The position numbers were made by a program, and so were the translations under genes. Shown here one piece after another: positions 1 through 32,858 of a DNA stretch of 64,000 bases. Source of the stretch: Takakia lepidozioides (Eukaryota; Plantae; Bryophyta); the NCBI GenBank assembly GCA_030704615.1, contig CM060733.1, forward strand, positions 35,526,001 to 35,590,000, given 5' to 3'. Position 1 is the stretch's first letter, and each line of letters opens with the position of its first letter. The notes below the pieces were generated by a model, which saw nothing but the letters and a program-made list of their open reading frames with translations, had not been told where the DNA came from and did not search any database.

Positions 1-2249
1 CGATATTGTGAAGGAGTGGCATCTGAAACATTTGCGTGATTGCCCTTGGTATGTGGACCTTCCGCCCGGCTCGCTCGACCCATCCGAGTTTCAATTGAAG
101 CTGGATGCTGAATTCCGACGAAACCGGGCTCCGCTGCCTCCGTTGGGTGCAAAAGAGGCAAAAGCGCTTGCGAACTCCAGGAAAGCGGCAGAGCTTGCTC
201 AGACAGGAATTCAGGAGAAATTGCATGAGAAGAGTAAAGGTCAAAGGAAAAGGACAAGGAAACAGGTGACTGCAGTAACACCCAAAAAGAAGAAAACCAT
301 CGGGGCATGGAGGAGGCGCAGGAGGGGACCCAAGAGAGTGACTCCGACGCCGATTTTGTTCAAGGTCCTGCGACTGCTGTTGCTCCTACCCAGTCACCGG
401 TCGTCCGGGTTCCCAAGTCAGTTCGGAGTGGGACTGGCTCTGCCAAGAAGTTGGCATTTGAGGGCGAGCCTACACGGCGGTATTCGGCGGTGACGTTTAC
501 GCACAGGCCAAAGCTAGAACCTCCAACCATCATCCAATGCGTCAATGAGAGCTTCCTTGACGCTCTCGCTGCCAGGGCGAAGAAGGTGGCACACAACAAG
601 TCTCTGGCGGAGCAGAAGGGGAAAGCCAAGAAGAGGGCTGCCGGTACAGAGCCTAAAGACACCCCTGGTTTTGAAGCCATGATGGAATTCTTCACGGCTG
701 TGAGCACGAATTGCAAGAGCACTCGGGGGGGGTTGAGGTGGAGAGAGCTTGCGACATGATTCTCCTCGACATTCCAGATGGGGAGCTGCTGGAGGGCCTG
801 GATGGTGTGCCCACCTGGAACAGGTTTACTGAGGACTACTGGAAAGCCGGGTTTGGGCTGGCGGGGATGCTTCTGGATGACGGTGGATGTGTGGTTGTCC
901 TTGCCACGAGAGGGAAGACCACAGAGAATGCGGTGGCAAGGTGGACACCGAAAAGTGTCACCCCGGTCCTCCTCAGAAAATGGTTCTGCATCAGTACGCA
1001 GGGGTTGCGAACAGAGGGCCAAAGTGTAAGTTATCAATCTATTGCATTCACTTCATATTGTGGTGTATGTTAAGTAGACCCTGGAATTGATCCCTTCTTT
1101 GTTGGATGTGCAGACATTGGTGTTTGAGGCATATTGCTTTGTGAAGAGAGGGTCTACGTTCAAATTCCGCAACGACGGTCGTCTTGTTGATGCCGCTGTG
1201 GACCCTGTAACCTACGATGTCCTCTACAACTATGTGCCCCACTCTAGTATGCCGAAGGACACAAAGACAGGCAAACCGTGGCGGTACAGCCGGACCCGAA
1301 GCCCTGCTTTCATCCAAACCCTCATGGAGACGTGCTCGGATGTCCAAGGGCGGATTCTGGACCTCACATGCGGCACGGGTAAGCCTTCACGTCCTCAGTT
1401 TGTCCCCTGGCCCCATTGCAATTGCATGCCGCAAGCTATTAACCGCCCGCTTTGTTCCTCAGGTGCTTCAATGTGGGCAGGGACGTTGTCCGACAGGCAT
1501 GTGTTCGCCTTCGAGCCAGATACTGCCCTCCACAACTCGGAACTTGCAGCGGCTGAACGTCTGCCGAAAGAGGAAGAGGCATCCTCGGAGGATGAGGAAA
1601 AATCCGAGAAGGAGCAGGGGGAGGAAGTTGGGATCGAGGCCGAGGAGCCCCGGTTTACGAGTGAGTGGTGGCATTGTAAGTTGCCTCCAGATTTTGTGAG
1701 GCACCTCCCTCCGCTCTCTTATTTCATTGAAAACCCTTTCTGGTTGTGCTGGTATTGACATTCTTCAAGTGGATTTGTTCTTACTGTAGGATGCCAAGTA
1801 CTGCCGGAGGGACGTCTACACCGGAGTTCATGGGCAGGAGGAACGTGCCTTTTTTTGCCAGGGGAGATTTCATGCCTAGTCCAGAAAGGGAGTACATCCT
1901 GCCTACTTATGCTGCCCGGCTTGCTTCGGTGTCCATTAGGAGGTGTTCCGAACGTAGTCGTGTACAGCAGATTTTAGACGAGGCAAGCCTCAAGAAAATG
2001 AAGATGAGGGAGGAGGCAGCAGCTATTAGAGCCCGTCGGGCTCGTAGATTTGTGTTGGATTCTGCTGAGGAAAGTGGGGGAGAAGACGCAGAAGATTCCC
2101 AGGAGGTGAGGTGGACAGTCCCCCAAGGAGAGGACGGGATTTTTGAGAGGCATAGTGGAACTGATGCATCACAGAGCTCGGAGGATGAGGGGGATGAGGG
2201 GGATGAGGAAGAAGGTGGGGCAAGTTCCTCGGAGGGTGTAGGAGAGTAG
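1..2249 (+). CDS. 3' part of an intron-containing gene whose C-terminal region resembles a beta-class DNA amino-methyltransferase (N6_N4_Mtase fold); copy 1, 5' end outside the window
   Basis: Motif IV-like CDMILLDIPDG (~751-783). GT-AG introns at 1026-1113, 1379-1462 and ~1661-1789. Splicing gives PWRYSRTRSPAFIQTLMETCSDVQGRILDLTCGTGASMWAGTLSDRHVFAFEPD, matching the motif X / motif I (SAM-binding) / motif II order of beta-class MTases. Acidic tail to TAG at 2247-2249. Two 1-bp frameshifts (~309, ~730) are absent from the inverted copy. Confidence 0.7.
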
Positions 2250-2414
2250 TGCCCATTCCGGCTATGACAGTTAGAACACACTTGTATAGACGTGGCTTGC
2301 CACAAAATTTGCAATAAAATGTTGCATTTTAAGTCCACTGGTGCCACATTCCAACTTCACATGACCCTATTTCCGTGCCTCCTAACCCTATTTCCGTGGA
2401 CTCACAATGGTCTG

Positions 2415-2500
2415 CTCATGCTTTTTTTTTTTCCGCTCATGCTCATGCCGCTCATGCTCATGCCGCTCATGCTCATGCCGCTCATGAAATAGCAGCCCCC
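2415..2500 (+). repeat. Subterminal CCGCTCATGCTCATG repeats and terminus A
   Basis: Three 15-bp units plus a partial unit immediately inside the terminus. The copy at 26675-26731 has two fewer units. Confidence 0.8.
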
Positions 2501-4864
2501 TTAGAAAGGGGGGCACAAACAGTGTGAGTTGACGCACACTGTTTGGTGCTTCCAACTATGGGGTTTATTGACATGGCATTCTGGCTTGTGTAGCCCATTT
2601 GGACATCCTAAAACAAGCTGAGAGAGGGGCACAAACAATATGCGTTGACGCACACTATTTAATGCTTCCAACTACGGGTATTTTGAACTTGGCACACTGG
2701 CCTCGTGTGGCCCATTTAGACATGAAAAATAGCTAGAAAGGGGGGCACAAACAGTGTGCGTTGACGCACACTGTTTGGTGCTTCTAACTATGGGGTTTTT
2801 TGACATGGCATACTGGCCTTGTGTGGCCCATTTAGACATCAAAAATAGGCTGAGATGGGGGCACAAACAATGTACGTTGACGCACACTGTTTGGTGCTTC
2901 CAACTATGGGGTTTTTTGACATGGCATTCTGGCCCTGTGTGACCCATTTTGAAAACCAAAAACAGGCTAAGAGAGGGGCCGAAATAGTGTGCGTTGACGC
3001 ACACTGTTTGGTGCTTCCAACTATAGGGTTTTTTGACATGGCATACTGGCCTTGTGTGGCTTATTTAGGCATCAATAAACAAGCATAAAGGGGAGCAAAA
3101 AGAGTGTGCTTTGAAGCACACTGTTTGGTGCTCCCAATTAGGGGTTTTTTGAAATGGCATTCTGGCCCTGTGTGGCCCATTTTGAAATCCAAAAACAGGC
3201 TGAGAGAGGGGCACAAACAGTATGCGTTGACGCACACTGTTTGGTGCTTCCAACTATGGGGTTTTTTCACATGGCATACTGGCCCCGTGTGGCTCATTTA
3301 GACATCAATAAACAAGCATGAAGGGGAGCAAAAAGAGTGTGCTTTGAAGCACACTGTTTGGTGCTCCCAATTAGGGGTTTTTTGACATGGCATTCTGGCC
3401 CTGTGTGGCCGATTTTGAAAACCAAAAATAGGCTAAGAGAGGGGAAGAAATAGTGTGCGTTGAGGTACACTGTTTGGTGCTTCCAATTAGGAGTTTTTTG
3501 ACATGGCATTCTGGCCCTGTATGGCCCATTTTGAAATCCAAAAACAGACTGAGAGAGGGGCACTTACAGTATGCATTGACGCACACTGTTTTGTGCTTCC
3601 AACTATGGGTTTTTTTGACATGCCATACTGGCCCTGTGTGGCACATTTAGACATCAATAAACAAGCGTGAAGGGGAGAAAAAACAGTGTGCTTTGAAGCA
3701 CACCGTTTGATGCTCCCAATTAGGGGTTTTTTGACATGGCATTTTGGCCCTGTGTGGCCCATTTTGAAAACCAAAAACTGGCTGAGAGAGGGGCAGAAAC
3801 AGTGTGCATTGACGCACACTGTTTGGAGCATCCAACTATGGGGTTTTTTGACATGGCATACTGGCCCTGTGTGGCTCATTTAGACATCAATAAACAAGCA
3901 TGAAGGGGAGCAAAAACAGTGTGCTTTGAAGCACAATGTTTGGTGCTCCCAATTAGGGGTTTTTTGACATGGCATTTTGGCCATGTGTGGCCTATTTTGC
4001 AAACCAAAAATAGGCTTAAAGAGGGGCACAAACAGTGTGCATTGACGCACATTGTTTGGTGCTTCCAATTATGGGGTTTTTTGACATGGCATACTAGCCC
4101 TGTGTGACTCATCTAGACATCAATAAACAAGCATAAAGGGGAGCAAAAACCGTCTGCTTTGAAGCACATTGTTTGGTACTCCCAATTAGGGATTTTTTGA
4201 CATGGCATTTTGGCCCCGTGTGGCCCATTTTGAAATCAAGAAATAGGCTGAGAGATGGGCACAAACAGTGTGCGTTGACGCACAGTGTTTGGTGCTTCCA
4301 ACTACGGGTGTTTTGAACTTGGCACACTGGCCCTGTGTGGCCCATTTAGACATTAAAAAATAACTAGAAAGGGGGGCACGAACAATGTGCATTGACGCAC
4401 ACTGTTTGGTGCTTCCAACTGTGGGGTTTTTTTACATGGCTTTCATGCCTTGTGTGGCCCATTTGGACATCCTAAAACAGGCTGAGAGAGGGTCACAAAC
4501 AGTGTGCGTTGACGCACACTGTTTGGTGCTTCCAACTATGGGGTTTTTTTACATGACATACTAGCCCTATGTGGCCCATTTAGACATCTAAACAAGCATA
4601 ATGGGGAGCACAAAGAGTGTGCTTTGAAGCACACTGTTTGGTGCTTCCCATTTGGGGTTTTTTGACATGGCATACTGGCCCTGTGTGGCCCATTTGGACA
4701 TAAAAAAACAGGCTAAGAGAGGGGCACAATTTGTGCGCATTGCCGCTCACTCTTTGGTGCTTCCAACTACGAGTGTTTTGAACCTGCTACACTGGCCCTG
4801 TGTGGCACATTTAGACATCAAACATCGTCCATTTTTAAATCAAAAAACAGGCTGAGAGGGGGTG
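2501..4864. repeat. Tandem satellite, ~116-117 bp monomer, ~20 units, two subtypes often alternating (~233-bp higher order)
   Basis: Recurring CAAACAGTGTGCGTTGACGCACACTGTTTGGTGCTTCCAACTATGGGGTTTTTTGACATGGCA.. unit. Spurious ORFs recur at 233-bp spacing (3647/3880; 3453/3686/3919). Confidence 0.95.
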
Positions 4865-6405: not shown

Positions 6406-7099
6406 ATGAATGGGATGGTTATGCCTTGTGTGACCGAGGATGATTTCAAGGCTGGGTGCACTGGATGCCTGGCTGAGTTGTGCATTGCATTGCATGGTAG
6501 ATATGCTGCTGTTGAAGAAGTGAGGAACCTGTAGACCTCAGATTAGAGAGAGAGAGAAAAGGATTTGGGAAGGGAGAGAGCTGCTTAGTATAAGGGGTTG
6601 ATGGGGGATGGCCAATTTGGGGAGATGAGATGAAGAAAACATGAACCCTGAAAGAGACCAGTGGCCCTGCAGTTCATGGCAGATCTGAGCTGCCTCCCTC
6701 TAAATCTGTGTCACCATTACAAAGGGGGCTTCCGACGTGTCACCGCTCAAGGGAGCTTCACATTAAGGGTCGTGTTCAGCGCTGTCATCGGGCTGGTTGC
6801 ATCACATAAAAGATCATGGCAGCACTGTTGGCGCTGTGATCATAGGGCAAGGCTGATGTATAAAAGTAGAACCAAGAGCAAGAACAATTCAAAACTCCCC
6901 ATCCATGTCTTCTCTTCCGCTGCGGCGTGGATGAGGATTGCATGAACTCTGATCACGAACGAACTAAGGGAAACCCACAGCCATGTGAAGATGGTTGGAT
7001 CACTAGAACGTTCCTTCCTTTTGCTTTGACTTCAACTAGGGAGGAGTACAGATTAGAATCACCCAGAAGGGGATTCACGCCCCTTCTTTTCACACTACA
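4865..7099. mobile_element. 2235-bp non-coding insertion with TG..CA termini: solo LTR or non-autonomous TGT-terminated element
   Basis: Begins TGTAGTGTGAA and ends TTCACACTACA (11-bp perfect IR, ~25-bp imperfect). 4-bp direct repeat GGTG at 4861-4864 and 7100-7103. The satellite monomer resumes in register on the other side. Confidence 0.8.
6373..6402. repeat. (GA)15 microsatellite
   Basis: Directly visible. Confidence 0.95.
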
Positions 7100-7512
7100 G
7101 GTGCACAAACAGTGTGCGTTGACGCACCTTGTTTGGTTCTTCCAACTTCGGGTGTTTTCAACTTGGCACACTGGCCTTGTGTGGCCCATTTAGACATCAA
7201 AAAACAACTGGAAAAGGGGGGCACAAAGAGTGTGCACTTACGCACATTGTTTGGTGCTTCCAACAACGGGTGTCTTGAACTTGGCACACTGGCCTTGTGT
7301 GGCACATTTAGACATCAAAAAACAATTAGAAAGGGCGCACAAAAAGTGTGCGTTGACGTACACTGTTTGTTGCTTTCAATTAGGGGTATTTTGAACATGG
7401 CATACTTGCCCTGTGTGGCCCATTTTGAAATCACAAGACGCACAGAGGGGGGCACAAACAGTATGCGTTGCCGCATACTGTTTTGTGCTTTCAACTGCGG
7501 GTGTTTTGAACA
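7100..7512. repeat. Continuation of the ~116-bp satellite (~3.5 more diverged units)
   Basis: Same monomer as 2501-4864; cut mid-monomer at ..GTGTTTTGAACA. Confidence 0.9.
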
Positions 7513-8698
7513 GAGGTTTACTATTTCATGAGCAGAAACCATGTGCCATGAGCCATGAGCCGCATGAGCGGTGAGCCGAAGTCTAAGACACGCGGATTTC
7601 ATGAGCGGACTCCTCCAAATTTGGAAATGCGGCAGATTAAACAAGTATTAAAATAATAGTTTTTTAGGGCACCTTGCCGTTTTTGGAAGTTCCACATCCT
7701 GTAATGCGGCGAAGATATGTCGTCAGTAACAAGATCGCTCATGGTTTTTTAGATCCGCGGTTTTACATGCCTTAACATTGGAATGAAGTTGACCCTTCTG
7801 CCGCGATTGAACCAATAGAGTCTGCAGTACTTCACAATTCTGTCATTTTCGGGTATTCGGCGGGAAAGATTTGCGACTCAACTGGGAAATGCGGTGCCGC
7901 ATTAGGGCTTGCACGTGCGAAATTTCTGGGGAGTTTGGTGTTGGCGACGGTCGGCTCCCTAAAGGCTGGGTGCGACTATCTTGCTATGACGAAGGTCGTA
8001 TCTACCAGTATCTACGACGTTACTTGGAAATGCGGCGCCGCATTTCCTTGCCGGGGGTCGAATGAGGAAAGCAAAGTTTGGGAGAGCAAAAAAATAGGAA
8101 CCCTCCAACAAACAAAAATACAAGCACGTAGAAACAGAAGTGAATGACATAGTATTATCTTAGTTCGAGCAAAACAGGTTATTGGTAGGCAAGACATAAG
8201 TCGGACCTTTCTGTGGCCAGAGTCAGAGCTACTTGCAGCAGTACAGTTCTACTACAACTGAAACTCCGAAAAGGATGGGCATACCATGGTTGGGGACCGC
8301 AAGCCAAGCTCATTGGTCCCCTGGATCCATATTCAGAAGAGTGTGCAGCTCTTGGGGGCTCAACCCTGGTGCATGTATGAAGTGATGAGTTGTGGAATTA
8401 CGCCGGAGTCTCTTTAGGTACACGTAGTACAGATGCTTGCAAGGGCTGTATGATGCCCCCTTGTTCGCCATGATCTGGAAGTCGGTGCAATTGCAGGTGG
8501 GTAATTCTGAAATGGTGATGGTGTACACCTCATTGCGAACAGCTGAGCCTGCCGTGGCCATCTGATACACACGCCCAAAGCCTGGTGGGGGCACTTCTGT
8601 CGAGGTGGAAACTCGAAGATGACATTGCCATCGACTTCGGGAGGCAGATACGTTACCTTCCTGACTGGAAATTTGGCATAGTCGAGAGCAGCCAGCCG
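7513..8698. mobile_element. Putative opposite arm (end B) of the same unclassified element family, truncated
   Basis: Starts GAGGTTTACTATTTCATGAGC, versus end A read inward GGGGGCTGCTATTTCATGAGC. Clustered CATGAGC subterminal motifs (7527-7606). Contains a GGCGCC-centred palindrome like the one in the MTase-gene intron repeats. Confidence 0.55.
8310..8698 (-). pseudogene. SWIM zinc-finger ORF fragment (possible transposase C-terminus)
   Basis: YTITISELPTCNCTDF..SPCKHLYYV fits the SWIM consensus CxCxnCxH. Its 5' part is replaced by gypsy RT sequence at 8699. No DDE core is visible. Confidence 0.65.
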
Positions 8699-9928: not shown

Positions 9929-10855
9929 TGTCGCGCGGCTTTTACTCACCCATCCCTTCGCTATCCGAGGCGGAAACTCCAAGATAGAAGAGTTGGAAAT
10001 CTCTAAGTACTCAGCCCGCTCAGAACAATCAGTCATGACCTACAGCTAGTGTATCATGGGGGTGTTTCCTATTTGTTTTCCTTTCCGCATTCATGTTAGC
10101 TAGCTACCTTACTATTGATAATTGAGTATCAGTTTGCTCATCAACTCATCCATTCATTCCACAGCTTCACTCAGATCTCTCTACACAGTGTGATTGTATC
10201 GTATAAGTATCAGATTATGATTTATCAGGTATCAGGCCGAAGCCATTGTGTCTCTAATCTCCTCTACAATATCACTACAGCTTTGCATATAACAAGCATC
10301 TACTAATCATCTCTCCTCCCACCGTGCTCTCCATGCTGGCTTTCGTTCTTGCTCTCCGCCCGATCCCTTCTCCTCCATGACCAAGAATCCCCCCCCGGAG
10401 TGCTTCCAAGAATAATCCTCCTCATCTCAGTCCTTGCTTCTCCCTTTATCTTCCTCCCCGTGGCTCTAACCGTTTCCCTCACTAACCGTCGTCCGTGAAC
10501 TAACATGTTCTATTTGCAGGTGTTGTTCCCCACAGTCGTTCCCTGTCCTGCTCTCCGTTCCCTATGGTCGTGACAGCTGTGTCAAGCTGTGACTGGCTGT
10601 GTGAAACTGTGACGGGCTGTGTCGGCTGTGACGGCTGTGTCGACTGTGACGGGCTGTGTTGGCTGTGTCGGCTGTGATGGGCTGTGTTGGCTGTGTCGGC
10701 TGTGATGGGCTGTGTCGACTGTGACGACTGTGTCACCCCCCTCTACAGTGCGCTGCTGTCACCCCTAAAGCTCATGTTGGTCTCAGTCTGTGCAAAAATT
10801 AAGGGTACTCCTCAGATCCCGTAAAAATGTCTAAGTCCCTGGCAGTCCTCTAACA
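9929..10855 (-). repeat. 3' LTR (927 bp)
   Basis: Direct repeat of 22282-23247, preceded on the minus strand by the PPT. Confidence 0.97.
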
Positions 10856-10893: not shown

Positions 10894-13137
10894 TTACTGT
10901 TTGGGATTAGCAAACCTTTGTGAGTGAGCACCCTTCTGACGTTGAGAGTCTCGTGAAGGACTTTGTGTGCGAGCCCGAGGTCTGCCACTGGTTGACGGAG
11001 ATGTTTGAACACTACCCGGATAAGTGATGCCTTCTGGAGGCTGATATCGAGGTAACCTTTCAGGCATAGGAGACCCCCGTCGCTTCTTCTCTGCCATCTG
11101 AATTGCATAGTCTTCTCCCATGTCAAAAGAATCCGCTGAAGAAACAGTTGTATCAGAATCCTCATCGCCTCTCAGGTGTTTTAATTGTCGAACTTTTTGT
11201 GGAATCCTCTGGGGCATACAATGTTGTCCTACCATGTCTGGAAGTTTATATTTTAAAACTTGGTATAAACGCTGAACTGCAAAATTGGTGAAGACACTGA
11301 ACTCCTTGTCTGTCCAGGTGAGTGGGGTACCAATGACTTGTGACTTGTTCAAGTATTTCCATGCCACATGTGCCTTATAGAAAATATCATCAATGCCGAA
11401 TTTCTGTGTTGACAAATTGTTCCAGGCTGCCTGAAACCATGAACGAATTTGAGAATCGTTTTGCATCATAACTTTTGCCTCATATAGGTACATATGAGGT
11501 GGCACTGAAGGTAAGACCCAATGATCCCCACTGGAATAACTCAGAAAGCGCGCTTGCATCTTTTGCTGCTCAATGTGATAACGTACCAGAAAACAAGCAG
11601 CGTAGTATAATCCACATCCCATGACAATACTCGCTACCTCCTTGGTCTTGGTATAAATGAATCCATGTACAACTTGGAAGGCAATTAATTCTCTCAACAT
11701 TGTACCTGCCTCATGCCAGTATTGTGCAAAGTGATGATTTTCAATTGGTCGATTGTTCGGAAGAACTTTAGTCCTCATTGCCATTGGCAGCCAAATGCGC
11801 ATGATTTGGTAGTAATGTGCAAATGACTGCGGAGGACTAAATTCTTTCCAAGCCAAATCCAACATGATGGGAATTTGGTTGAAGGGCAGAATCATAGCCC
11901 TACTGTACTCCCTTGCAGCTGGAGTTTTAGGTGGGTTAAAAGCAGCATTGCCCCATACCTCAGACTGTGGTGGCTGTGGTGTGGCTGTAGTAACAACAGG
12001 GTCAGCTACTGGCACAGTGACTTGTTGTGGTGTTGGTGGCAGTTGCTCTTGTATCATTGGCATCTCCTGCACCTCTTGTGAAGATGACTGGAAAGCTAAA
12101 GTTCTTGCTTTTAAATAAGAAGCCATTAGCTGTTCCTCAGGTACACAGACTCTTTTGTCGATATTTGAAGTGAGGTCCTCCACTTGAGTCTGCAGGCCGT
12201 CTACATCCTCCTGTAACTCCGCTATTCTACTATAGACATTGTCTATAGTAGTTGTAGCAATGTTCTGCACTTGCAGCCTGAGTTCATTCATCTCGTTTTG
12301 GGTGAGCTTTCGTGGTGCTTTGCCCTCCACTGGCCCTTGTGCTAACCAGACCTGCATAAGGTGGTTATCCACCAAGTTGCTTGTGGTTCCTCTGAGAGTG
12401 TGCTCTTCTCTTTGTTTGTACACATCTAACTGCTGTTGTAAAGCCTCCATGCGCTTCGCATGAGGTTCAACCAAATTCGCATAGGCAGCAGCCAGATTAT
12501 TGGCTTCCTTCCAAGCTTTATTAGCCACAGAGAGTTCATTTCTATTGGCCATGATTGTTTGTTGCAACTCCAAGATGTGCCTCTCTTGGTCAGCTTCAAC
12601 CTGCCTGTATTGCTTGAAAGTATCCTCATTGCGACAGATTGTATTCTTCGTATCGACGATGAGTTTCACTTGCTCAACATTCTCTGCCTCTGCCTTCATA
12701 CATCTTTCCGCTTGACTGTTTATTTCTATTGTAGATTGGTCCAGCATAGTTGTGAGTGTAGCACATTGAATGGCCATTCTGTCATGCACTGTCTGCAACT
12801 CCGTATGTAGTGCATTCACTTGTTGCAACTTGCTTTCATGCTTCACCTGCATTTGGTATAGCTGTTGCTTATGTGCTTCATGCAATTGGTCTTGCGTGAG
12901 ACCTGCCTCAATCAATTGTTCCTTGGCCAATTGCAAAGCTGCTTCTGTATTCTCCAAGTCTTGCTGCATCTTGAGAGTGACCTTCTCATCGACCTTGTTT
13001 GCACACTCAGTGGCTAGTCGAGCCTCAAACTCCTTCATGAGTTCCTCTCTCAAGGCTGTCAATTGGGTAATTGGAACATGGGATTTGACATAAGTCCCCA
13101 ACAAATTAAGTGTCCTGCCTATGGAACTCATAAGCAT
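10894..13137 (-). CDS. C-terminal part of the retrotransposon extra ORF (long coiled coil plus unknown globular region), 747 aa
   Basis: E/Q/L-rich heptad-like N-half. Homologous pieces at ~26635-26676 and 36955-37855. Same frame as pol. Confidence 0.8.
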   Translation of the reverse strand: MLMSSIGRTLNLLGTYVKSHVPITQLTALREELMKEFEARLATECANKVDEKVTLKMQQDLENTEAALQLAKEQLIEAGLTQDQLHEAHKQQLYQMQVKHESKLQQVNALHTELQTVHDRMAIQCATLTTMLDQSTIEINSQAERCMKAEAENVEQVKLIVDTKNTICRNEDTFKQYRQVEADQERHILELQQTIMANRNELSVANKAWKEANNLAAAYANLVEPHAKRMEALQQQLDVYKQREEHTLRGTTSNLVDNHLMQVWLAQGPVEGKAPRKLTQNEMNELRLQVQNIATTTIDNVYSRIAELQEDVDGLQTQVEDLTSNIDKRVCVPEEQLMASYLKARTLAFQSSSQEVQEMPMIQEQLPPTPQQVTVPVADPVVTTATPQPPQSEVWGNAAFNPPKTPAAREYSRAMILPFNQIPIMLDLAWKEFSPPQSFAHYYQIMRIWLPMAMRTKVLPNNRPIENHHFAQYWHEAGTMLRELIAFQVVHGFIYTKTKEVASIVMGCGLYYAACFLVRYHIEQQKMQARFLSYSSGDHWVLPSVPPHMYLYEAKVMMQNDSQIRSWFQAAWNNLSTQKFGIDDIFYKAHVAWKYLNKSQVIGTPLTWTDKEFSVFTNFAVQRLYQVLKYKLPDMVGQHCMPQRIPQKVRQLKHLRGDEDSDTTVSSADSFDMGEDYAIQMAEKKRRGSPMPERLPRYQPPEGITYPGSVQTSPSTSGRPRARTQSPSRDSQRQKGAHSQRFANPKQ

Positions 13138-13590
13138 TGCCTGTTGAGGGTCATCATGGTGAGCTTGCTACTGTTCTCCTTCTCCCTGATCCTCAACAGT
13201 GTGATGTCTCACGAACCACTCAGGCCATTGTCCCACCAGATTTTCTTCCTAAACCACTTCATCCATCACCGGTGCTGCAGTGTTTTGACATTCTACCTGT
13301 GGTACCTCCGGCACAGGTGTGTGTATTATATGTATCCCAGTATTTCCCGTGGGCAACTGTTGCACCTCTGGAATCTCCGTCTCCTTGACCAGACCAGAAT
13401 ATTCATAGAAAATGTCTCCCTTCTCAATTTCTGCCACTATCTGTTCTGTAGTTGGAATATCTAACCCTTCTTTTTCCAAATCAATTATTTCTGGTTGAGC
13501 TGCATGGACAACTTGTAACCTTGTGACAAGCCGATCAGCTGGCTGTGATGGTTGTGATACTGAAGTAACTTCCTCCTCCCTCTCTGAAGG

Positions 13591-16500
13591 TCATGCTTCC
13601 AGTAATAGCAGTTCTCTGTGCTGCTGTGCCCCTTCCTGCACATGAGCTTGGGAAACATTATCATGCGGAATCCGTGAAGCCAGTGGATCCGCCACTACAT
13701 TCTTTCCCCACCTCTGTCTCTTATTCTCGGGTTGCCCTGCCAGTCCACCCTCACTGTGTGAAGAGCCTTGCTCTTCCATTGCAGTGATTTCTGGCTCAAA
13801 CACTCCCATCTCCTTTCTTTCTCGCGCATCTAGGATGCGAGAATCAAGAATTATTTGTGCAATGATTGGGCCAGACACTATGATAGGAGACTTTGCGGTA
13901 GTACCCTGTAATCTTTTCATCTCCTCTACCAGTGCGTTGTACATTATGTCCGCCCATTCTACCTCTTCTCCTCTCAGGGCTTTGAGTATTTCCTCTGTAA
14001 AGGATCTGCTCAAGTACTGTTGGTTCTGTTTCATGGCAAACATAACGTTCAATACCTGGCCTACCTCCTTTAGCCCTGGGTACACAGCCTTGGTACAAGC
14101 GTAACCCTGAGTTTTAAAGAAACTCCCTTCTTGGAATAAGTCCCCTATTTGCAGTCTTGCCCTGTGTTCCTCCACATGCACTTGACCTGCTGGCAATTGA
14201 AACAATTGCTGTAGGTATAGGGGAGTAATTTCTAATTCCACTCCCTTCACTGTTGTTGCTCCTGTCTTAGGCTCCATGTTCTGCAAGAATTGTAACATGT
14301 ACTGTCGATGGTGCAATGTCCAATCTTTGTTTTGCAATCCTTGCAATCTCAGTTCCTTCAGTAACTGTACTGCCTGTGGAGTAGCAATCGTTTGTTTCTG
14401 CAGGATTGTGGTGCTCTTCACCCTGATTTCCTCCATTCCTCTCACTCTCTTCATTCTAGACCCACAGAAATGTTTTGGCTGTAACAACTGAAGAAATGCC
14501 TGTAGTGCACACAGCATAAACGTATGGTTGCCACAAAAAGCTATGGGTAATTTCTTGTAAGCCTGTGGGGCTTGCAAGCATCGTTCAAGAGAAAAGATCT
14601 GCTCTGTTCTTTCGTCCCTATGCCACTGTGTAAGTAGTATTGCGAGTGTATAGTCTGTTAGTTCCTCCATAGCTTCAAAGCTATAACATTGATGGTTTGT
14701 CCCGTCGAGACGCCCGTTACTCAGAACGACGCCGCCTCTTGCGCTTAATTTCTCTCCATTTTCTTGATCGTTTCTCTGGCTTTCTATTGGCTGTAACCGC
14801 GGTGACTGGATTTTAGATTTAATTTTATTTAGTGGACTTTCCCTGCTGGATTGTCCACTAGGATCACACATGTGACAAGAATTTCTCTTTTCTGTACTTG
14901 CTGTTCGTTCCGTTCCTCTTTTTCCGTATTCATTAATGGGCCCGCCATTCATCCGAATTGACGCGCTAAGTTGGTACTTTGACGGCCATTCTTGTCCTCT
15001 TTCTTGATGACACCTGTTCTTGCACTTCCTTCTCAGCTGTGTGTCACGCCCTGACTTCCACGTGTCTATTTTTAAACTGGTTTTTGTCCTTTCTTCAATC
15101 GGCCATTTTCCTGAAGTTAATGTGCGTCCACCTGTCACTGATTCTATGGATTGTATAACCCTAGTAGGCTGTGTTGAACTGTGATAGGATGTGTTATACT
15201 GTGGTGCGCTATGATAGGCTGTGATGCACTGTGGTAAGCTATGATAGGCTGTGACACGCTGTGGTAGGTTGTGATAGGCTGTGTTTCGCCTTGATGGGCT
15301 GTGATAGGCTGTGTCACGTCGTGATGGGCTGTGATAGTCTGTGTTTCGCCTTGATGGGCTGTGATAGGCTGTGTCACGTCGTGATGGGCTGTGATAGTCT
15401 GTGTTTCGCCTTGATGGGCTGTGATAGGCTGTGTTTCGCCTTGATGGGCTGTGATAGGCTGTGTCACGTTGTGATGGGCTGTGATAAGCTGTGTTACGCC
15501 TTGATGGGCTGTGATAGGCTGTGTCACGCTTGCTCTGCCCGCCCTGGTCATATATGCTCGGTCTAGCGACAAGTGCTCCATACTCTGTTGGTAACACTGG
15601 CGCAGCCCGTGACTGCTCTTGCGTTTCAACATGCAAATCATGCTGCAATGGTTTGTCATGGATACCACTGTACCCCTTCAACTTATTGGCATTGACTCTT
15701 CCCAGCATTTCTTTGTTAATGGTTTGTAACATGGCTGTGTTGTTATCATACATCTTTTGTATGACATAGGGTCCTTTCCATGGTGATTTAAGCTTAGAAG
15801 CTTTAATCTTTCCCTTTTTCTGCAACCATAAAACCAAATCTCCCGTCTTAAAAGTTTTTAACTTGCCTTCATCAAATTGTTCCTTCCTCTTCATCTGAGA
15901 TCTGGTCATATTATCAACTGCATCAGCACGTACTTCTTCCACATGGTATAATTCATGTTTCCTGACCTTAATGGAATCTTGCAATTCCATTCTCTTTCCC
16001 CATTCCGTTCTCATGGTAGGTAACAGGAATTCCACTGGAAGTAAGGCTTCCATACCATAAACTAATTGGAATGGTGTATACTTTGTGGTGACTTTATATG
16101 AAGTCCTGTATGACCACAAAGCTGTCAGCAGCTTTGTATCCCAATCCGTTCTGTTTGCATTGACTATCTTAGCCAAGATAGTACATAGTATTTTTTTGGT
16201 AGCCTCTGCCTGCCCATTACCCTGTGGGTAATATGTTGTACTCTTCCTATGCACAATCATGAACTCTTTAGTCAACAACTCAATGGTCTCATTAATGAAG
16301 TGACTTCCCTGATCACTGATAAACTCTAAGGGACAACCAAATCGTGTAAGTATGTTCTCATACAGGAACCTTGCTGTGGACTTGGCTGTGTTGTCCCTCA
16401 AAGCTTTAGCTTCCACCCACTTCGTAGTATAATCAGTGGCTGTAATTATGTACCTGTTCCGTGTATTCTTGGCTGGTGGGTTAATTGGTCCAACAAAGTC

Positions 16501-18228: not shown

Positions 18229-21200
18229 TTGTACCTCGCCTGCTTGATTGGTACTGACCCTGGTTCTAGTTCAATCTTATGCTGACAGACTTCAGGTGGT
18301 ATTCCTTTTAGATCTTCATAGCTCCAAGCAAATACATCTCTGTATTTGATGAACAAGCTCTTAGCTTCTTCAAAGAATTTTGGCTCCAAATCAGCTCCTA
18401 CTTTCACCATCCTCGGTTCCTCTTTAGTTCCCACATTCACTTCCCTCACCTGTTCATCAGCTGTGATTGTCCAACCAGTCACCACTTCATCCTGTAAGCT
18501 CACAGTGGCTGGTTCCTCTAGGATTTCCATTTCTCCTTCTCTTTCTTCATAGAAATGTGATGGGTAACTGCTGGTTTCCTCTTCAGTTGGTGTTGCTGTC
18601 ACTACACCACAGCAGATACCTCTTAAACAACTTAGGCTTTCCAGCCGCATCTCTGCAACTTGCTCCCACTCTGGGTGTGCAGCAAACAGGGTAGCTTCCT
18701 GCTCCTCATCCAGTCCTTCTCTCCAGTCATACTCTCTGACTCCTCGAGGTCTTCTCGTAGCAGGTAATCTACTAGATTTCTTTGTGGTAATTTGTATCTC
18801 GTGTATCCCATTATGCACGGTTAGTAACTGAGAATTCCAGTCATGGAATACCCTGGCCTGCTTCAGCCACGGACTTCCCAATAATAAGGAGTAAGCCTCC
18901 ATGACTTCATCCATTTTCAACACAGTTACTGTGATCATAAAGATCATCTTTTGTATCTGTATCTTAACTCCTCTTATTAATCCCAATGGCTGTACACTTC
19001 TTTGATCTGCCATTGTTACTGTAAATGGGGCTGGTTTCATGTTACTTAGACCAAGCTTCTTTCTCAATTGGTCTGTCATGATATTTACTCCATAACCTCC
19101 ATCTATCAGTACATCAGTTAGCTCTGTGCTTCCAATTTTCAATTGGATTACTGGCATAGAATCATCAAAGTCCATGACTGTTTCTCGCCCTTCCGGCTTC
19201 ACATTATAACTGGTAACCTTGCTGTTCAGGTCTGTGTTTCCTGTCTCCTGGGCAATTCGATTGATTGCTTGATACAGCTTGTGCCTACAATAAGGTGCCA
19301 CAGCCAATAGCTGTCCAATGGTAATCTCTGCTTTGGTCTGGCATATTACTTCAGCCAAAGTCTCTTCATTACTTTTCATGTCCGCATCTTCTTTCTTCCT
19401 TTCCTTCTCCCTCACTTCTTCTTCTCCATCAGAATCAGAGGAATCTGCCACAGGAATATCAATACTCTTCTGCATTTCCCTTATGGTATCTGCCACTTCC
19501 TTGTGCAGTTCCTTCTCCTCTCTCCAAGCTTCATCATCTTCAGGCATATCACTGCCACCTTCATTATCATCTTCTTCCTCTACTACTGGAGGTATTAGTT
19601 TGGCTTTACTTCTTGTTACTATCATTGTACTTACTTCTGGTACAACACATGGCCTAACCATGTGAGCTGCCACCACTGGGCCCTCATTCACAGGAGCTCT
19701 CATCTCATTCTGGTGTCTAATCCAGAATGAATAGGCTGCCTTGTGATGTCCGGGCTGATTACAATAGTAACACAGTTCTTCACCATTGGGTCCTCGCCCT
19801 TGGTCTACTCTTGGATTATTTCTGTAATCCTGATTCCCGGGCTGGTAATTCCCCCTTGGATTACCCTGATAGTTGCCTCTGGAATTCCCTTGGTAATTCC
19901 CTCTTGAATTACCTCTCCCTTCCATGCCATTGTTATAACCACCAGACCTACCATAGTGGTCCTGATCATTGTTTCTTCTTGGCTGGGGCTGCACCTGATG
20001 CACCCTTACTTGCCTAGGTTCTCTTGCAACTGTCCTTCTGTTGTAGTAACAATTCTCAGTAGAATGGTTATCCATTTTACAGATAGTACAGTGTTTCTCC
20101 TTCATGTGGCATTCTGTGGTGGTATGGCCTTCATTCTGGCACTTTGCACACCATACACCCTTCCTCCAATGTGTTGCAGCCTCTGTGGCATACTTCTTCA
20201 AGATTTCTTCCAATCTTTTCTCATAGTTATCCCTCTTCAATTTCTCCTTTCTCTTACTCTTCCTTTTTAGTTCTTGCTCTTCTTCTTCATCTGACTCATC
20301 CTCAGAGTCCTCATCATCCCTTTTCTCTCTCCTGAGCATTCCCAATTGCTCAATCCTGTTTGCAGTTTCAAATGCCTCCTCCACTGTATTATGGGGTAAC
20401 ATATCCACTTTCTTTTGCAACTCTGGTCTTAGTCCACTCACAAACCAAGTCTTCTGTAAACCGGGTGCTGGTACTGCAGCCAGCTTTTTCATCATCAATT
20501 CCATCTTTTCCATATACTCCTCAACAGTTTCATGCTTCTTTTGCTTTAACTGTTGTAAACTTCCATACACTTCATCCTCAGTTTTACTTGTCCTGAACCT
20601 ATTTCGAAATGCTGTATTCAAGCCATTCCAGGTTAGGAAATGATTATCAGGGAATCTTGCATACCATTCACTTGCTTTCTTTATAAGTGAACAAGGAAAC
20701 AATCTCATCTTGGCATCCTCGCCATTCTCATTGTTCACTATACACATGTGCTCAAATTGGCTAATGTGTACATCGGGATCCCCTTTTCCTGAATATATTG
20801 GAAAAGGTGGTTTTGCCCGTGTTGGTTGTAACGCCATTTGTGGCCCTACCTTCTGCCCACTGACAGGTGCCGGCACCCTTGCTGGTGCTGGTCCTTCTGG
20901 ACCTGTTGTTTTTGTGGTGGATCTTCCACCAAGTGGTGGCCCTTGAGCACTCCCTGCTTCCGGCCCCACGATATTCACAGTATTCCCAGCTTCAGTTGCA
21001 CTACTTTCCACACTCCCTGTCCCCCCAGAGCCAGATCCAGGCAACCCGCCTGATCCCCCTGAGCCGACACCTTCGTTGGCCTGTGATCCAAGTGCTCCAC
21101 TTGATCCAGGTCCAACGGGTTGGGATGTCCTGGTTGTAGTCTCAACCTCAGCTGTTGGGTCTACTTCTTCATACTCTTCCTCTTCCAATTTCTTCTCTCT

Positions 21201-23247: not shown

Positions 23248-23252
23248 GGGGC

Positions 23253-26200: not shown

Positions 26201-26676
26201 AAGAAGTTACTTCGGTATCATAGCAATCATAGCTAGTTGAACCGATTGTCTCAGGGGTACCTCAAGTAGTACATGCTGCTCCACCACAACCTGTTGCTTT
26301 GGAAAAAGAAGGGTTAGACATTCCCACTACAGAGCAAGTAGTGGCAAAAATTGAGAAGGGTGACCTTCTCTATGAAAACTCAGGTTTGGTCAGGGAATCA
26401 AGGATACCAGAGGTGCAGAGTCTGTCCAAGGAAATCCCTACTGTGCAGATAATACCCACACTTGTGACGGAGGTACCAGGGGTAGAACATGAGGACACTG
26501 CAGCACTTGTGGAGGATGAGGTGGAGCAGGAAGAGAATCTGGTGGGGCAATGGCCTGAATGGTTCGTGAAGCATCACACTGTGGAGGATCAGGGAGAATA
26601 GCAGCAAGTTCACCATGATGACCCCCAGCAGGCCATGCTTATGAGTTCCATAAGCAGGACACTCAATTTGTTGGGG
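23253..26676 (+). mobile_element. Older Ty3/gypsy copy, part 2 (integrase plus extra ORF), degenerate and 3'-truncated
   Basis: Resumes at KMYKLGP straight after the TSD. Collinear with the inner element up to MLMSSISRTLNLLG. Several TAG stops and frameshifts. Cut by terminus A at ~26675. Confidence 0.92.
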
Positions 26677-26895
26677 GGGCTGCTATTTCATGAGCGGCAT
26701 GAGCATGAGCGGAAAAAAAAAAAGCATGAGCAGACCATTGTGAGTCCACGGAAATAGGGTTAGGAGGCACGGAAATAGGGTCATGTGAAGTTGGAATGTG
26801 GCACCAGTGGACTTAAAATGCAACATTTTATTGCAAATTTTGTGGCAAGCCACGTCTATACAAGTGTGTTCTAACTGTCATAGCCGGAATGGGCA

Positions 26896-29800
26896 CTACT
26901 CTCCTACACCCTCCGAGGAACTTGCCCCACCTTCTTCCTCATCCCCCTCATCCCCCTCATCCTCCGAGCTCTGTGATGCATCAGTTCCACTATGCCTCTC
27001 AAAAATCCCGTCCTCTCCTTGGGGGACTGTCCACCTCACCTCCTGGGAATCTTCTGCGTCTTCTCCCCCACTTTCCTCAGCAGAATCCAACACAAATCTA
27101 CGAGCCCGACGGGCTCTAATAGCTGCTGCCTCCTCCCTCATCTTCATTTTCTTGAGGCTTGCCTCGTCTAAAATCTGCTGTACACGACTACGTTCGGAAC
27201 ACCTCCTAATGGACACCGAAGCAAGCCGGGCAGCATAAGTAGGCAGGATGTACTCCCTTTCTGGACTAGGCATGAAATCTCCCCTGGCAAAAAAAGGCAC
27301 GTTCCTCCTGCCCATGAACTCCGGTGTAGACGTCCCTCCGGCAGTACTTGGCATCCTACAGTAAGAACAAATCCACTTGAAGAATGTCAATACCAGCACA
27401 ACCAGAAAGGGTTTCAATGAAATAAGAGAGCGGAGGGAGGTGCCTCACAAAATCTGGAGGCAACTTACAATGCCACCACTCACTCGTAAACCGGGGGCTC
27501 CTCGGCCTCGATCCCAACTTCCTCCCCCTGCTCCTTCTCGGATTTTCCTCATCCTCCGAGGATGCCTCTTCCTCTTTCGGCAGACGTTCAGCCGCTGCAA
27601 GTTCCGAGTTGTGGAGGGCAGTACCTGGCTCGAAGGCGAACACATGCCTGTCGGACAACGTCCCTGCCCACATTGAAGCACCTGAGGAACAAAGCGGGCG
27701 GTTAATAGCTTGCGGCATGCAATTGCAATGGGGCCAGGGGACAAACTGAGGACGTGAAGGCTTACCCGTGCCGCATGTGAGGTCCAGAATCCGCCCTTGG
27801 ACATCCGAGCACGTCTCCATGAGGGTTTGGATGAAAGCAGGGCTTCGGGTCCGGCTGTACCGCCACGGTTTGCCTGTCTTTGTGTCCTTCGGCATACTAG
27901 AGTGGGGCACATAGTTGTAGAGGACATCGTAGGTTACAGGGTCCACAGCGGCATCAACAAGACGACCGTCGTTGCGGAATTTGAACGTAGACCCTCTCTT
28001 CACAAAGCAATATGCCTCAAACACCAATGTCTGCACATCCAACAAAGAAGGGATCAATTCCAGGGTCTACTTAACATACACCACAATATGAAGTGAATGC
28101 AATAGATTGATAACTTACACTTTGGCCCTCTGTTCGCAACCCCTGCGTACTGATGCAGAACCATTTTCTGAGGAGGACCGGGGTGACACTTTTCGGTGTC
28201 CACCTTGCCACCGCATTCTCTGTGGTCTTCCCTCTCGTGGCAAGGACAACCACACATCCACCGTCATCCAGAAGCATCCCCGCCAGCCCAAACCCGGCTT
28301 TCCAGTAGTCCTCAGTAAACCTGTTCCAGGTGGGCACACCATCCAGGCCCTCCAGCAGCTCCCCATCTGGAATGTCGAGGAGAATCATGTCGCAAGCTCT
28401 CTCCACCTCAACCCCCCCCCGAGTGCTCTTGCAATTCGTGCTCACAGCCGTGAAGAATTCCATCATGGCTTCAAAACCAGGGGTGTCTTTAGGCTCTGTA
28501 CCGGCAGCCCTCTTCTTGGCTTTCCCCTTCTGCTCCGCCAGAGATTGTTGTGTGCCACCTTCTTCGCCCTGGCAGCGAGAGCGTCAAGGAAGCTCTCATT
28601 GACGCATTGGATGATGGTTGGAGGTTCTAGCTTTGGCCTGTGCGTAAACGTCACCGCCGAATACCGCCGTGTAGGCTCGCCCTCAAATGCCAACTTCTTG
28701 GCAGAGCCAGTCCCACTCCGAACTGACTTGGGAACCCGGACGACCGGTGACTGGGTAGGAGCAACAGCAGTCGCAGGACCTTGAACAAAATCGGCGTCGG
28801 AGTCACTCTCTTGGGTCCCCTCCTGCGCCTCCTCCGATGCCCCGATGGTTTTCTTCTTTTTGGGTGTTACTGCAGTCACCTGTTTCCTTGTCCTTTTCCT
28901 TTGACCTTTACTCTTCTCATGCAATTTCTCCTGAATTCCTGTCTGAGCAAGCTCTGCCGCTTTCCTGGAGTTCGCAAGCGCTTTTGCCTCTTTTGCACCC
29001 AACGGAGGCAGCGGAGCCCGGTTTCGTCGGAATTCAGCATCCAGCTTCAATTGAAACTCGGATGGGTCGAGCGAGCCGGGCGGAAGGTCCACATACCAAG
29101 GGCAATCACGCAAATGTTCCAGATGCCACTCCTTCACAATATCGTCAGTGTACATGGAGTCAGCCCCGGGGTTCCTCCATGCCAGGAAGAATGGTGGCTC
29201 GAAAGACAGATGACCTTTCTCCAAAAGCGAGAACTTACAGTACCTGCATTCATGAAAAAACCCAATGAGGTCCGAAAATGGCTAAGTCCCTGAACGGCAA
29301 TAGGGCCTACAACTGGAATATGGCGCCGAATTTCCACTTCAGGGCCACCCAGTCTAGGGACTTAGCCCGAAAATGGCTAAGTCCCTGGACGGCAATAGGG
29401 CCTGGAACTGGAAAACGGCGCCGAATTTCCACTTCCGGGCCAGCCACCCTAGGGACTTAGACCAAAAATGGCTAAGTCCCTGGACGGCAATAGGGCCTAG
29501 AACTGGAAAACGGCGCCGAATTTCCAGTTCCGGGCCAGCCACCCTAGGGACTTAGACCGAAAATGGCTAAGTCCCTGGACGGCAATAGGGCCTGGAACTG
29601 GAATATGGCGCCGAATTTCCACTTCAGGGCCAGCCAGTCTAGGGACTTAGCCCGAAAATGGCTAAGTCCCTGGACGGCAATAGGGCCTAGAACTGGAAAA
29701 CGGCGCCGAATTTCCAGTTCCGGGCCAGCCACCCTAGGGACTTAGACCGAAAATGGCTAAGTCCCTGGACGGCAATAGGGCTGGAACTGGAATATGGCGC

Positions 29801-32613
29801 CGAATTTCCACTTCAGGGCCAGCCAGTCTAGGGACTTAGCCCGAAAATGGCTTAAGTCCCTGGACGGCAATAGGGCTAGAACTGGAAAACGGCGCCGAAA
29901 TTTCCAGTTCCGGGCCAGCCACACTAGGGACTTAGCCCGGAAAATGGCTAAGTCCCTGAACGGCAATAGGGCCTGGAACTGGAAAATGGCGCCGAATTTC
30001 CAGTTCCGGGCCAGCCAGTCTAGGGACTTTGCCATTTTCGGAGCCCTGACTGGAAATCGGCGCCATTTTCCCTAACACCACTTAGGCCTCTAACATCCTG
30101 AAATGCCAGGACTTGAAGAAAGGCAGCGCGTATGTACCTGTACGAAGGCGCATTGCTGCTTTGTCCGCGTTCGGCTGGTCGGTGAACTCGTGGCTCCGGC
30201 GAGCATCTGCTATCGTCCCGAAAGAATAGGTTGGTTTTTAGAGCAGAAAGTACCTCGTCACATAGTCACGTAGGCTCTCTGCTGCAGGAGATATCTCCAT
30301 CTTGAACTGATGTGCTTGTGTGTGTCCAGCTGCTCTTGCGCATTAGTCGTCACCTGTGGAGATTGTCCATCAGATCGCTTTCCTCAAAAAATACAATGAA
30401 TCCACCCCCTACTGAGTAGAAGCCCCAAACGAAGCCGTGGGGAAGGTACCTGAACCACCATGTCATGCGGTTCATCCACATGTCGAATGTGGGTCAGAGA
30501 GTTTGTCCGGTTTGGGGAAGCTCCACATGTCCCTGGTACTTTGGGAACCATTCCAGATTGGAGCCACCGGGTCTGTTCAACCACCCAGCATATTCGTAAG
30601 AGCCAAAACACCACAAAAAGGAGTTGTTGCCACCACAATTTGGTTAAGAATGTATCACCGTTCTGTTGCATCCACACAGGATGTGGCTAGACGATGGAGC
30701 TTCTCCAATGTCATCGTGGGCTTCAGAGCGCGAGAGTGTGCTTTCCCACCTCCACCGAAAGTCGGCACCAAGGGCGGGATAAGCTATGGCCACGTGGTAT
30801 TACCATCCGCTGACTGTATTATGCGGGCCTCACCTCCGCAGCTTTGACATACGATTCGAGTTCCGGGAGGGTTGATTCTTCTCCTCTGACTCCATGTAGA
30901 ACCTCGCGCATGTGCCAAATCCTGCTGTATTTTCGTCTGTCGAAAAGGCGCACATAAGATTAGAGATCCTGCTCAACACAATTCTTCTATTGGGGGAGGA
31001 GAGACAATTAGCTCAACAAAACTGCAGGAGGCTTTACCCGAATTATGTAGTCCACCATGGCGTCGACGCTCAGCCTATACCAGGTTTGTCTGCTTTGCCT
31101 CCGACTTGGCAGGAGGTCGCGCACTGAGGGAATGGCCCAACTCTTGCACCCCCTGCTTCCCGACATCCTCACTCGGAAGAGCATAGGGACAAGTTGGTGG
31201 CAATGAAGGCATCTCAGTCACCCTGCAAGTGCACTTCCATCAAAACAATTACTGAAATGGGAATTTTCATCATTAGAGGAGGATTCGCAAATGAAATGAC
31301 TTCCAAATTCAAAGTTCCAAAATCGAGGGGGTTGTAGCTTACGAGTTGATGTCGGCCATTGCAGCTTTGAGAAGACTGCGATCTTTGGGCCCAGCCACAT
31401 TCAGCACAACACAATCGACGGCGAAATGCAAATCGAGATCGTTGGGGTGGGCTTGGGCAATGTGCTCCATACATGCCAGGAGGCAGGCGATGATTGACGT
31501 CCCACACGTAGAACATCTTACCGACATGTGTGGGAAAAGAGGATCACTAGCCAATCGATCTCTCGAAATCCTCATTTCGCGTTTGCCAATGGGGACCCCA
31601 TTGGTCCACCTCATCGGAAGAGTGTGGGCACGGAGCTCCGTGGTCGTTCTCAATGGGAAAGTAAAAGGCGGCAGACCCCATCGATAATCATCCGAAAGAG
31701 GAATTTCAGCTTGTCGTATAGCCTGGGAGGGCAGGTTCACCACTGCAAATGACACCAAGCGGCAAAGGGGAATTCGAAGCTTGGCCGGGGTACACCATGC
31801 CCAACAGGCACCCTGCCACTGTTATGTGGGTTGCCTCCAACATCTTGGCAGCGGCCAACTTCATATCCGCCTCAGACATGACGTCTGCTGCAGAGGGGTT
31901 TTCCGGCAGCCCACCAGGACCGCCAATCCAGCCTGTATGCTCCGGGTTTGGGGCCTGGGGATGTCCGGGAGAATGTCATCCTGGTCAGAAAGCTCCCTGT
32001 CGTCCTCCTCAACAGGGTCAGCCACCTGCGAAACCACCTCCAGCACTCTCGTCGTCTCTTACTGCCCTCTCCCTGGCTTCACCTCGAACTTGCACAATCG
32101 GTGCTCTTTCAGGTGTTCTTTCCTCTCCTCCACTCTCCACCGTATGGGTAATTGCGGGGGCTGCTCTTGCCCGCGATGGTCTAACCGGTGTGCTACTGCC
32201 TCTCTGTGGTGTCTTGTAGGGATCCACCGTCTCTGTGTGTCCCTCGCTTACATTGCATCTGTCATTTGGGCACCCCTGGCCTCTTCAGCTGCCTTTTTGT
32301 CTTTCCTCCTGCTAGCATTCTGTCTCGTCTGTTCTTTTGCCCTCTCTTTTGCCCTCTCACGGGCTTTCTGTTTCTTACTAGGGCTAGCAGCAGGGGAGCC
32401 CTCCAGGACGACCACCTTTGATTGAGGCGAACTGACACCCTCGCGCGCACTGCTCACTCCCCCCTCCGCAGCCCGTGACTGCTCTCTCGCCGGGGATTGC
32501 ATGTGCTTAGCTTTCTTCTTTTTCTTTGCGTGGGCGGGCCCTACTGCATGTGCATGAACAACCTCCATTGCCGGATCTGCTGTCCTCATGTCCTCACGCC
32601 CTTCACCTGCCAT
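26896..32613 (-). pseudogene. Multi-exon gene: basic/disordered N-terminus, ParB/Srx-like region, linker, DNA amino-MTase-like domain, acidic tail; frameshifted as assembled
   Basis: Candidate ATG at 32613 (MAGEGRED..KKKKKAK). Across frameshifts, 31340-31680 reads AAFYFPIENDHG..QWGPHWQTRNEDFE..DPLF..KMFYVWDVNHRL..MEHIAQAHPNDLDLHFAVDCVVLNV..AAMADIN, then a GTAAGC donor. Exon YCKFSLLEKG.. starts at ~29243. MTase motifs as in copy 1. The middle exons are only approximately resolved. Confidence 0.55.
29271..30072. repeat. 95-bp tandem array (~8 units, two subtypes) of imperfect palindromes inside an intron
   Basis: AAAATGGCTAAGTCCCT recurs at 29275, 29370, 29465, 29560, 29655, 29750, ~29844 and ~29941. 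It lies between a minus-strand donor (~30137) and acceptor (~29244). Confidence 0.92.
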
Positions 32614-32858
32614 GCCGCCTGCACCAACCTCCCCAATGCCTACTCTCGTAATCTCGTTGCAAAGTCCTCCCGTCCACCAACAAAAGGATTTAAGTTTGCC
32701 CTCTCGCCCCAAGTTGGGCGATTCAAACATGCGATGAGTTGGAGCTGTCGATGATACCACCAGCGTTGCGGGCTCGTCGTCACTCTGTGATTGACAAAAA
32801 TCGTGTGAACACCAACAGCGGTGCAAAAGCAGCAGCGCAACCACCATAGCAGCAATCA

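Follow-up and report, generated by a model that had tools for sequence, protein, structure and literature searches.

A mobile-element accessory gene of Takakia lepidozioides with a methyltransferase-like domain and a putative ParB-like front

The closest described systems

Transposon-borne genes that combine ParB-like and methyltransferase domains have so far, within the literature searched, been described only in algae. The accessory protein of Sola1-1_Ec32 in the brown alga Ectocarpus carries a ParB-like and an N4C/N6A methyltransferase domain and, in the part of the paper available, is proposed to bind and to modify its own element (PMC12477816). Plavaka elements of the red alga Bostrychia are described in the available text as carrying two genes, PAG2, which pairs PF01555 with SET, and PAG3, which pairs a ParB-like domain with a 2OG oxygenase (bioRxiv 10.1101/2025.02.11.637652). 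An earlier note on the DNA considered here named bdelloid N4CMT and Marchantia DN4MT1 as the rare eukaryotic examples of beta-class enzymes, and the accessible portion of PMC12344493 likewise names only these two for 4mC; the transposon-borne PF01555 and ParB-plus-methyltransferase genes published from brown and red algae take the list further. No land-plant report of such genes was found in the literature searched; plant members may be named in texts outside it, namely the Bostrychia supplements, a 2011 review cited for green algae and the Cell 2025 paper on DN4MT1. A different kind of accessory protein, VANC of the VANDAL Mutator-like elements, has been shown to counter silencing, according to the sections consulted (PMC6446971).

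The locus reported here lies in the window of 64,000 nucleotides from Takakia lepidozioides, the whole stretch of DNA that was analysed (Table 1). Likened by its published description, Sola1-1_Ec32 also presents a large DNA-transposon accessory gene with an amino-methyltransferase-like back and a ParB-like front, the latter putative in the window. It differs in belonging to a brown alga and to Sola1, with AACCG..CGGTT termini and a 4-bp duplication, whereas the window element is that of a plant, has a G-rich end, is linked to a SWIM gene, carries a DIPD motif and holds its palindrome array in an intron. PAG2 and PAG3, as far as described in the source, share the transposon-borne amino-methyltransferase and (putative in the window) ParB-like domains, and tandem inverted-repeat arrays adjoin the ParB-like gene. 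There, each domain has a gene of its own and different partner domains, and PF01555 is recognised directly; in the window the two are apparently fused and the array is intronic.

Prokaryotic and phage beta-class enzymes (PF01555; CcrM, PRK13699, phrog_3008) resemble the window protein in having motifs X-I-II C-terminal and, plausibly, in having the motif IV strand upstream. Unlike them the window gene lacks [DNSH]PP[YFW], has spliceosomal introns and encodes long charged N- and C-terminal extensions. DN4MT1 and N4CMT, compared by description from partial sources, are likewise eukaryotic beta-class descendants and N4CMT is intron-bearing, but they are low-copy host genes with SPPY and demonstrated 4mC activity, whereas the window gene is a high-copy element gene without SPPY. 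With VANC, again as its source describes it in part, the likeness is a functional analogy only: VANC is the accessory protein of a DNA transposon of the SWIM type, and its action is on that element's own copies. The two proteins are unrelated, and anti-silencing, shown for VANC, is only inferred for the window protein.

Table 1. Positions of the gene, element and repeat features in the window
Feature	Position	Strand	Remarks
Copy 1, accessory gene, 3' part	1..2249	+	starts left of the window; extends past 745-1530
Copy 1 exons	1-1025, 1114-1378, 1463-1660, 1790-2249	+	from sequence, read contigs and intron predictions
Motif IV position, DMILLDIPDG	753..782	+	D-I-P-D at 768-779; aligns, marginally, on the DxvvTdPPY strand of the phage beta-class profile
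Intron 1	1026-1113	+	88 nt, phase 0, GTAAGT..GCAG
Motifs X, I and II; intron 2 splits motif I, the SAM loop	1279..1530	+	beta-class amino-methyltransferase-like domain
Intron 2	1379-1462	+	84 nt, phase 1, GTAAGC..CTCAG, inside the glycine loop
Intron 3, predicted	1661-1789	+	donor 1661 the only one of 6 tried that keeps the frame open
Element end	2414..2500	+	CTCATG repeats, then terminus at 2500
Second element end	7513..7610	+	inverted relative to the end at 2500; shares CTATTTCATGAGC and CATGAG repeats
Array palindrome core, dispersed copies	7885..8047	.	adjoin the SWIM gene piece
SWIM-finger gene piece	8310..8698	-	Pfam SWIM E 7e-4, 19.5 bits against a cut-off of 19.6; cut by Ty3 sequence
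Copy 2 of the element	26675..32858	-	99.7% identity with 1-2456 where both are present; runs into assembly gap 32859-33358
95-bp unit x8, two palindromes per unit	29272..30033	.	candidate binding sites
Array-holding intron, predicted	about 30137 to 29244	-	match of X8 contig 17 stops at the acceptor, 29246
ParB/Srx-like motif region (our assignment), WDVNHRL	31484..31525	-	weak co-linear matches to relative L004 (CDGNHRL)

Gene structure, splicing and relatives

The bounds first given for the gene, 745-1530, were too narrow, the gene reaching far beyond them. The earlier note does not have the second copy, the array of palindromes or the putative ParB-like portion of the gene further upstream. 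Copy 1 reads as a single 649-codon open frame once three single-base indels, also present in read contigs, are honoured, a count that also presupposes predicted intron 3. The depth of read runs X8 and X10 falls at 1681-1764, inside that intron, and RNA-like contigs continue to 1667-1668, past its predicted donor.

The accessory gene is spliced at introns 1 and 2. Removal of two short GT-AG introns joins the DMILLDIPDG frame to that of the SAM loop, as the earlier note had described, and it was right that one of them, intron 2, divides the SAM-binding glycine loop. Frame restoration alone is weak proof, because 15 of the 79 GT..AG pairs of 60-150 nt achieve it at intron 1. The check that had been proposed, a search for the junctions in RNA data, yielded a contig joined exactly at both introns: X8 contig 25 (770 nt, depth 20.9) maps to 727-1025, 1114-1377 and 1462-1667 with no letters between. 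The splice joint is that of one contig of one run, and X8 is RNA by guess, none among the runs listed being recorded as such. The run is RNA-like in covering the exons of a host transferase gene and in having zero depth at intergenic 38813-40405. Of the joints between matching segments, 15 of 23 were listed, and none of these is a joint at introns 1 and 2 in the DNA runs X1 and X2.

Both intron positions recur in distant relatives, which settles in favour of the introns the question of whether they are conserved. Motif I was found by script in 16 of the 24 relative fragments examined. Likeness to the window ends at the intron-2 position in 15 of those 16; the other, P0010, lacks the intron and runs straight through. 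A start at a Q|T boundary matching the intron-1 acceptor is seen in 7/16, and GT/AG are found at the corresponding places in loci L001 and L002. Intron 2 contains no stop codon and preserves the frame, so that raw ORF 1078-1758 continues across it; because the intron splits the SAM loop, the family is missed by standard annotation.

The relatives are exon pieces called by prokaryotic gene finders. A HMMER search of 1.84 billion representatives gave 14 matches, 12 of them real fragments and two dropped as low-complexity, and a profile search gave 29, mostly further fragments. Among 6101 candidate proteins of 388-2000 residues the profile search found none (weak evidence), and therefore no full-length relative was obtained. 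A first metagenome scan produced 183 pattern matches, 0 of which were confirmed. Decayed relatives are present at seven loci, three of them distinct, from a more AT-rich plant genome. Locus L004 preserves the order of a DGNHR motif, weak co-linear matches, the exon that follows the array intron (E 2e-4) and exons A, B and C. Although the subfamilies are only 25-50% identical, they conserve the exon plan and residues such as N, W-R-G, E-x-C and D-L. Two observations were made beside these remnants. In L002 at 7073-7424, and also in L003 and L004, a tandem array of about 52 bp stands just before a SWIM-like piece, echoing the window arrays, and L003 has at 6895-8076 an intronless sterol methyltransferase ORF (PF08498), 2.5 kb past the decayed element.

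Domains of the protein and the element that carries it

The prokaryotic (bacterial-type) amino-methyltransferase ancestry suggested in the earlier note is borne out for the SAM half, as is the beta-class motif order, with the motif IV position upstream and motifs X-I-II at the C-terminal end of the domain. The reference was a profile of 57 phage beta-class enzymes, of which 51 were chosen for a motif-I pattern with motif IV ahead of it and the other 6 belong to a single phage family. Aligned with hhalign, the family profile matched it with P 96.5 and a score of 66.9 over 67 columns covering motifs X, I and II; no column shuffle of 30 reached this score, the best giving 17.3. The spliced window protein alone scored 27.0 (0/50 shuffles equal, best 21.0) and the unspliced protein 17.3. 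Against an HMM of these 57 sequences the spliced protein fell within the range of its shuffles, 3 of 500 scoring higher.

The intact relative P0010 matches Pfam PF01555 with E 7.6e-6 (26.5 bits on a half domain, below the gathering cut-off of 26.7), phrog_3008 (DNA methyltransferase) with 1.8e-7 and PRK13699 with 1.2e-5. PF01555 matches of three further fragments reach only E 0.07-0.15, and tblastn of P0010 against phages gave four DNA methyltransferase records at E 0.8-0.9 only. Scanned unspliced, the window ORFs matched no methyltransferase of Pfam, PHROGs or PDB, and word searches that started from the raw ORF found nothing. Against PDB sequences the profile gave only DpnA at E 1.1 and the unrelated NalD at 0.047, and A4 gave nothing. 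Structures predicted for the P0010 half domain only had pLDDT values of 33.5 and 51.7, and fold searches listed no methyltransferase, an outcome that says nothing about the fold because both models are too poor. Descent of the SAM half from beta-class amino-methyltransferases is well supported by the profile comparisons.

Further upstream, copy 2 supplies the array-bearing predicted intron and additional exons up to the N gap. Its D[GV]NHR motif at 31484..31525, which we take to be ParB/Srx-like, has V where L004 has G. Pfam, NCBIfam and PHROGs named no ParB domain in the upstream pieces, which were scanned short and broken. The string ILCGCNR at 30690 was rejected as the ParB motif, co-linear comparison placing the motif at 31484-31525. 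The array palindrome core has 10 matches in the window, all in the array or at 7885..8047, with 0.00 expected; the array palindromes were not found in L003, L004 or L007.

Carriage on a mobile element, also put forward in the earlier note, is established by a sharp end at 2500, varied flanks, very high depth and two copies 99.7% identical. Contigs of X2, X8 and X10 leave the window at 2500 (20 X2 contigs, agreement 0.39), and the two window copies diverge at this terminus. The ends at 2500 and 7513, which belong to different insertions, compare with a score of 80, the best of 300 shuffles being 55. Summed X2 depth is 1.7e5-6.4e5 over 26600-32971 as against 200-218 at 39344-40405, in plain host DNA. 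The element is present on the order of thousands of copies, to be read as an order of magnitude only because summed depth is no copy number. A host-gene reading was rejected on DNA depth and terminus.

The counterpart of copy 1 in copy 2 is inverted (29144-26689) and its host site is a Ty3 remnant. Its six single-base indels complement those of copy 1 and resemble long-read errors. An assembly artefact was rejected as the origin of the two copies, which have different end flanks, the reads showing many more flanks; local duplication or cross-polishing may have occurred, because the copies share alleles rare in X1/X2 (e.g. at 203). Neither window copy shows both ends, one meeting the window edge and the other the N gap, and no target-site duplication, which in Mutator-like elements measures 8-11 bp, was observed.

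Ends and palindromes that both have in common tie the accessory-gene element to the SWIM-finger piece, and so does their linkage in another plant, where in L002-L004 a SWIM-homologous piece follows the methyltransferase remnant at a distance of 3.6 kb. The piece is likely what remains of the element's transposase gene; no DDE domain was found in the pieces scanned with Pfam. We infer that these are one family of cut-and-paste DNA transposons, most likely Mutator-like, with the SWIM gene as transposase.

CpG observed/expected is 0.66-0.68 in the element (1-2250, 30100-32858) against 0.31 in Ty3 and 0.33 in a GANP-like gene, as would be expected if the element is young or under-methylated. At 26922-28208 and 31456-32646, X9 (organism B) and X11 (plant or other DNA) have short pieces of low depth that are almost identical to the window; they represent close relatives or cross-contamination. 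Between the two element ends, at 2502-4822 and 7103-7511, stand arrays of a 116-bp unit that has a palindrome of its own. A third, related element may have its binding sites there, or the arrays may form a satellite targeted by the elements. One arm of the 95-bp array palindrome recurs at 10824-10840 and 23216-23232, where it caps a duplicated LTR-like block (9929-10855 = 22282-23247), an unexplained link between Ty3 and the transposon array. The Ty3 retroelement itself occupies 10897-21680 on the minus strand, with gag, pol, a long C-terminal pol extension and an extra 757-codon ORF that has no Pfam match; related pieces are at 22282-26676 and 36971-37852. Host genes on the minus strand encode a BAHD-type transferase (PF02458, 40654-42397) and a GANP/SAC3-like protein (50720-55497), and a zf-RVT remnant lies at 44111-44734. 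The BAHD transferase, the Ty3 elements and the short GT-AG introns point to a plant as host.

Function of the accessory protein

Motif IV had been assigned to DMILLDIPDG. The register stands, marginally; the canonical motif does not, the residues being D-I-P-D and not [DNSH]PP[YFW]. Exon A alone has its best local match to the phage profile in the motif IV register, with 56/100 shuffles scoring equally. Together with the L002 remnant it gives a 52-column match over motifs IV-VI, matched by 2/100 shuffles, and the two score 59 against each other (0/1000 shuffles). On these comparisons descent of the catalytic half, too, from beta-class amino-methyltransferases is plausible. Both window copies lack the aromatic residue of motif IV, which according to PMC4738411 stacks on or holds the target base, and so does X10 contig 11, a contig with 0 differences from the window over 756-980. 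The decayed L002 reads DCLR there, and a SPPY motif of the N4CMT/DN4MT1 type is not present in the window protein, which reads DIPD. By its catalytic motif the accessory protein is not a member of the active beta-class family, and it is probably catalytically dead or altered. The working DNA-modifying enzyme of the earlier note is, with the aromatic residue absent, unsupported as stated. Since the usual catalytic signature is lacking, the protein likely serves the element in recognising and shielding its DNA rather than in methylating it.

We favour, with a probability of about one half, an accessory protein of self-recognition, with a ParB-like front and a methyltransferase-derived back whose chemistry is probably lost or changed. 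The ParB-like domain would load on the element's palindromes, both those of the 95-bp array within the intron and those next to the SWIM gene. The methyltransferase-like domain would dimerise and grip DNA as beta-class enzymes do, and so positioned may occupy or remodel element chromatin. The element would thereby stay transcribed and mobile, as VANC achieves for VANDAL, and no 4mC or 6mA would be written by the accessory protein itself. A DNA-binding protein that counters silencing was the alternative offered in the earlier note, and in our assessment it is the better-supported branch when set against an active enzyme.

That the protein is instead an active 4mC/6mA writer with a non-standard motif IV, targeted by its ParB-like part and marking element DNA against 5mC silencing or flagging copies for transposition, we consider doubtful. 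The frame is intact and spliced, and in the window protein motif IV retains its Asp and Pro, as motifs I and II do their acidic residues. Among eukaryotes there are permuted clades whose strand-4 motifs are unusual (PMC4738411), and the Ectocarpus protein is predicted to methylate (PMC12477816). Position 4, however, is without an aromatic residue in either sequence seen (window and L002), the first SAM-loop glycine is missing from many relatives, and N4CMT is reported to lose its activity when the S and Y in SPPY are replaced (PMC8885841). As doubtful is the fuller picture of a live land-plant transposon in thousands of copies with a phage-derived ParB/parS-plus-methyltransferase module, clamped on palindromes and using 4mC/6mA to counter 5mC silencing, which would provide plants with a base mark that a transposon encodes.

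The gene may also be a passenger, captured long ago by a non-autonomous element in the manner of a Pack-MULE, transcribed by read-through and now without function. Every relative fetched as DNA is decayed, the X8 transcript has several amino-acid changes relative to the DNA majority, and motif IV is eroded. This reading is nevertheless distinctly unlikely, given the exon plan and key residues kept across divergent subfamilies, a 649-codon frame that is open in a family of very high depth, and common exon B variants that are both silent (n=2).

A move of the domain to another substrate, in an RNA, protein or cofactor-sensing role, would accord with the repeated DNA-to-RNA shifts in the superfamily, as set out in the part of PMC4738411 consulted, and with a DIPD that matches no DNA consensus. 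It is very improbable, the library matches of the intact relative all being DNA methyltransferases and no RNA-binding domain having been found in a Pfam scan. Least probable is a structural transposase partner that joins the element ends, like MURB, and has no chromatin role: ParB proteins bridge DNA, repeats are present at both ends and palindromes lie near both genes, but retention of the methyltransferase-like domain is then unexplained.

To our knowledge, VANDAL with its VANC is the only case in which transposon proteins that recognise and protect the element's copies have been characterised in detail. The class of accessory protein that joins ParB to a methyltransferase has so far been a proposal from algae. 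It now appears to have a counterpart in a land plant, and one that is apparently live, judging by the open frame, the spliced contig, the near-identical copies, the depth and the candidate sites. Because the copy family looks alive, the idea of self-recognition is directly testable here, through palindrome binding and the methylation state of the copies. An active enzyme would add a third way in which multicellular eukaryotes arrive at 4mC/6mA, whereas a dead one would show plainly how an enzyme of phage origin can be reused as a scaffold that binds DNA.
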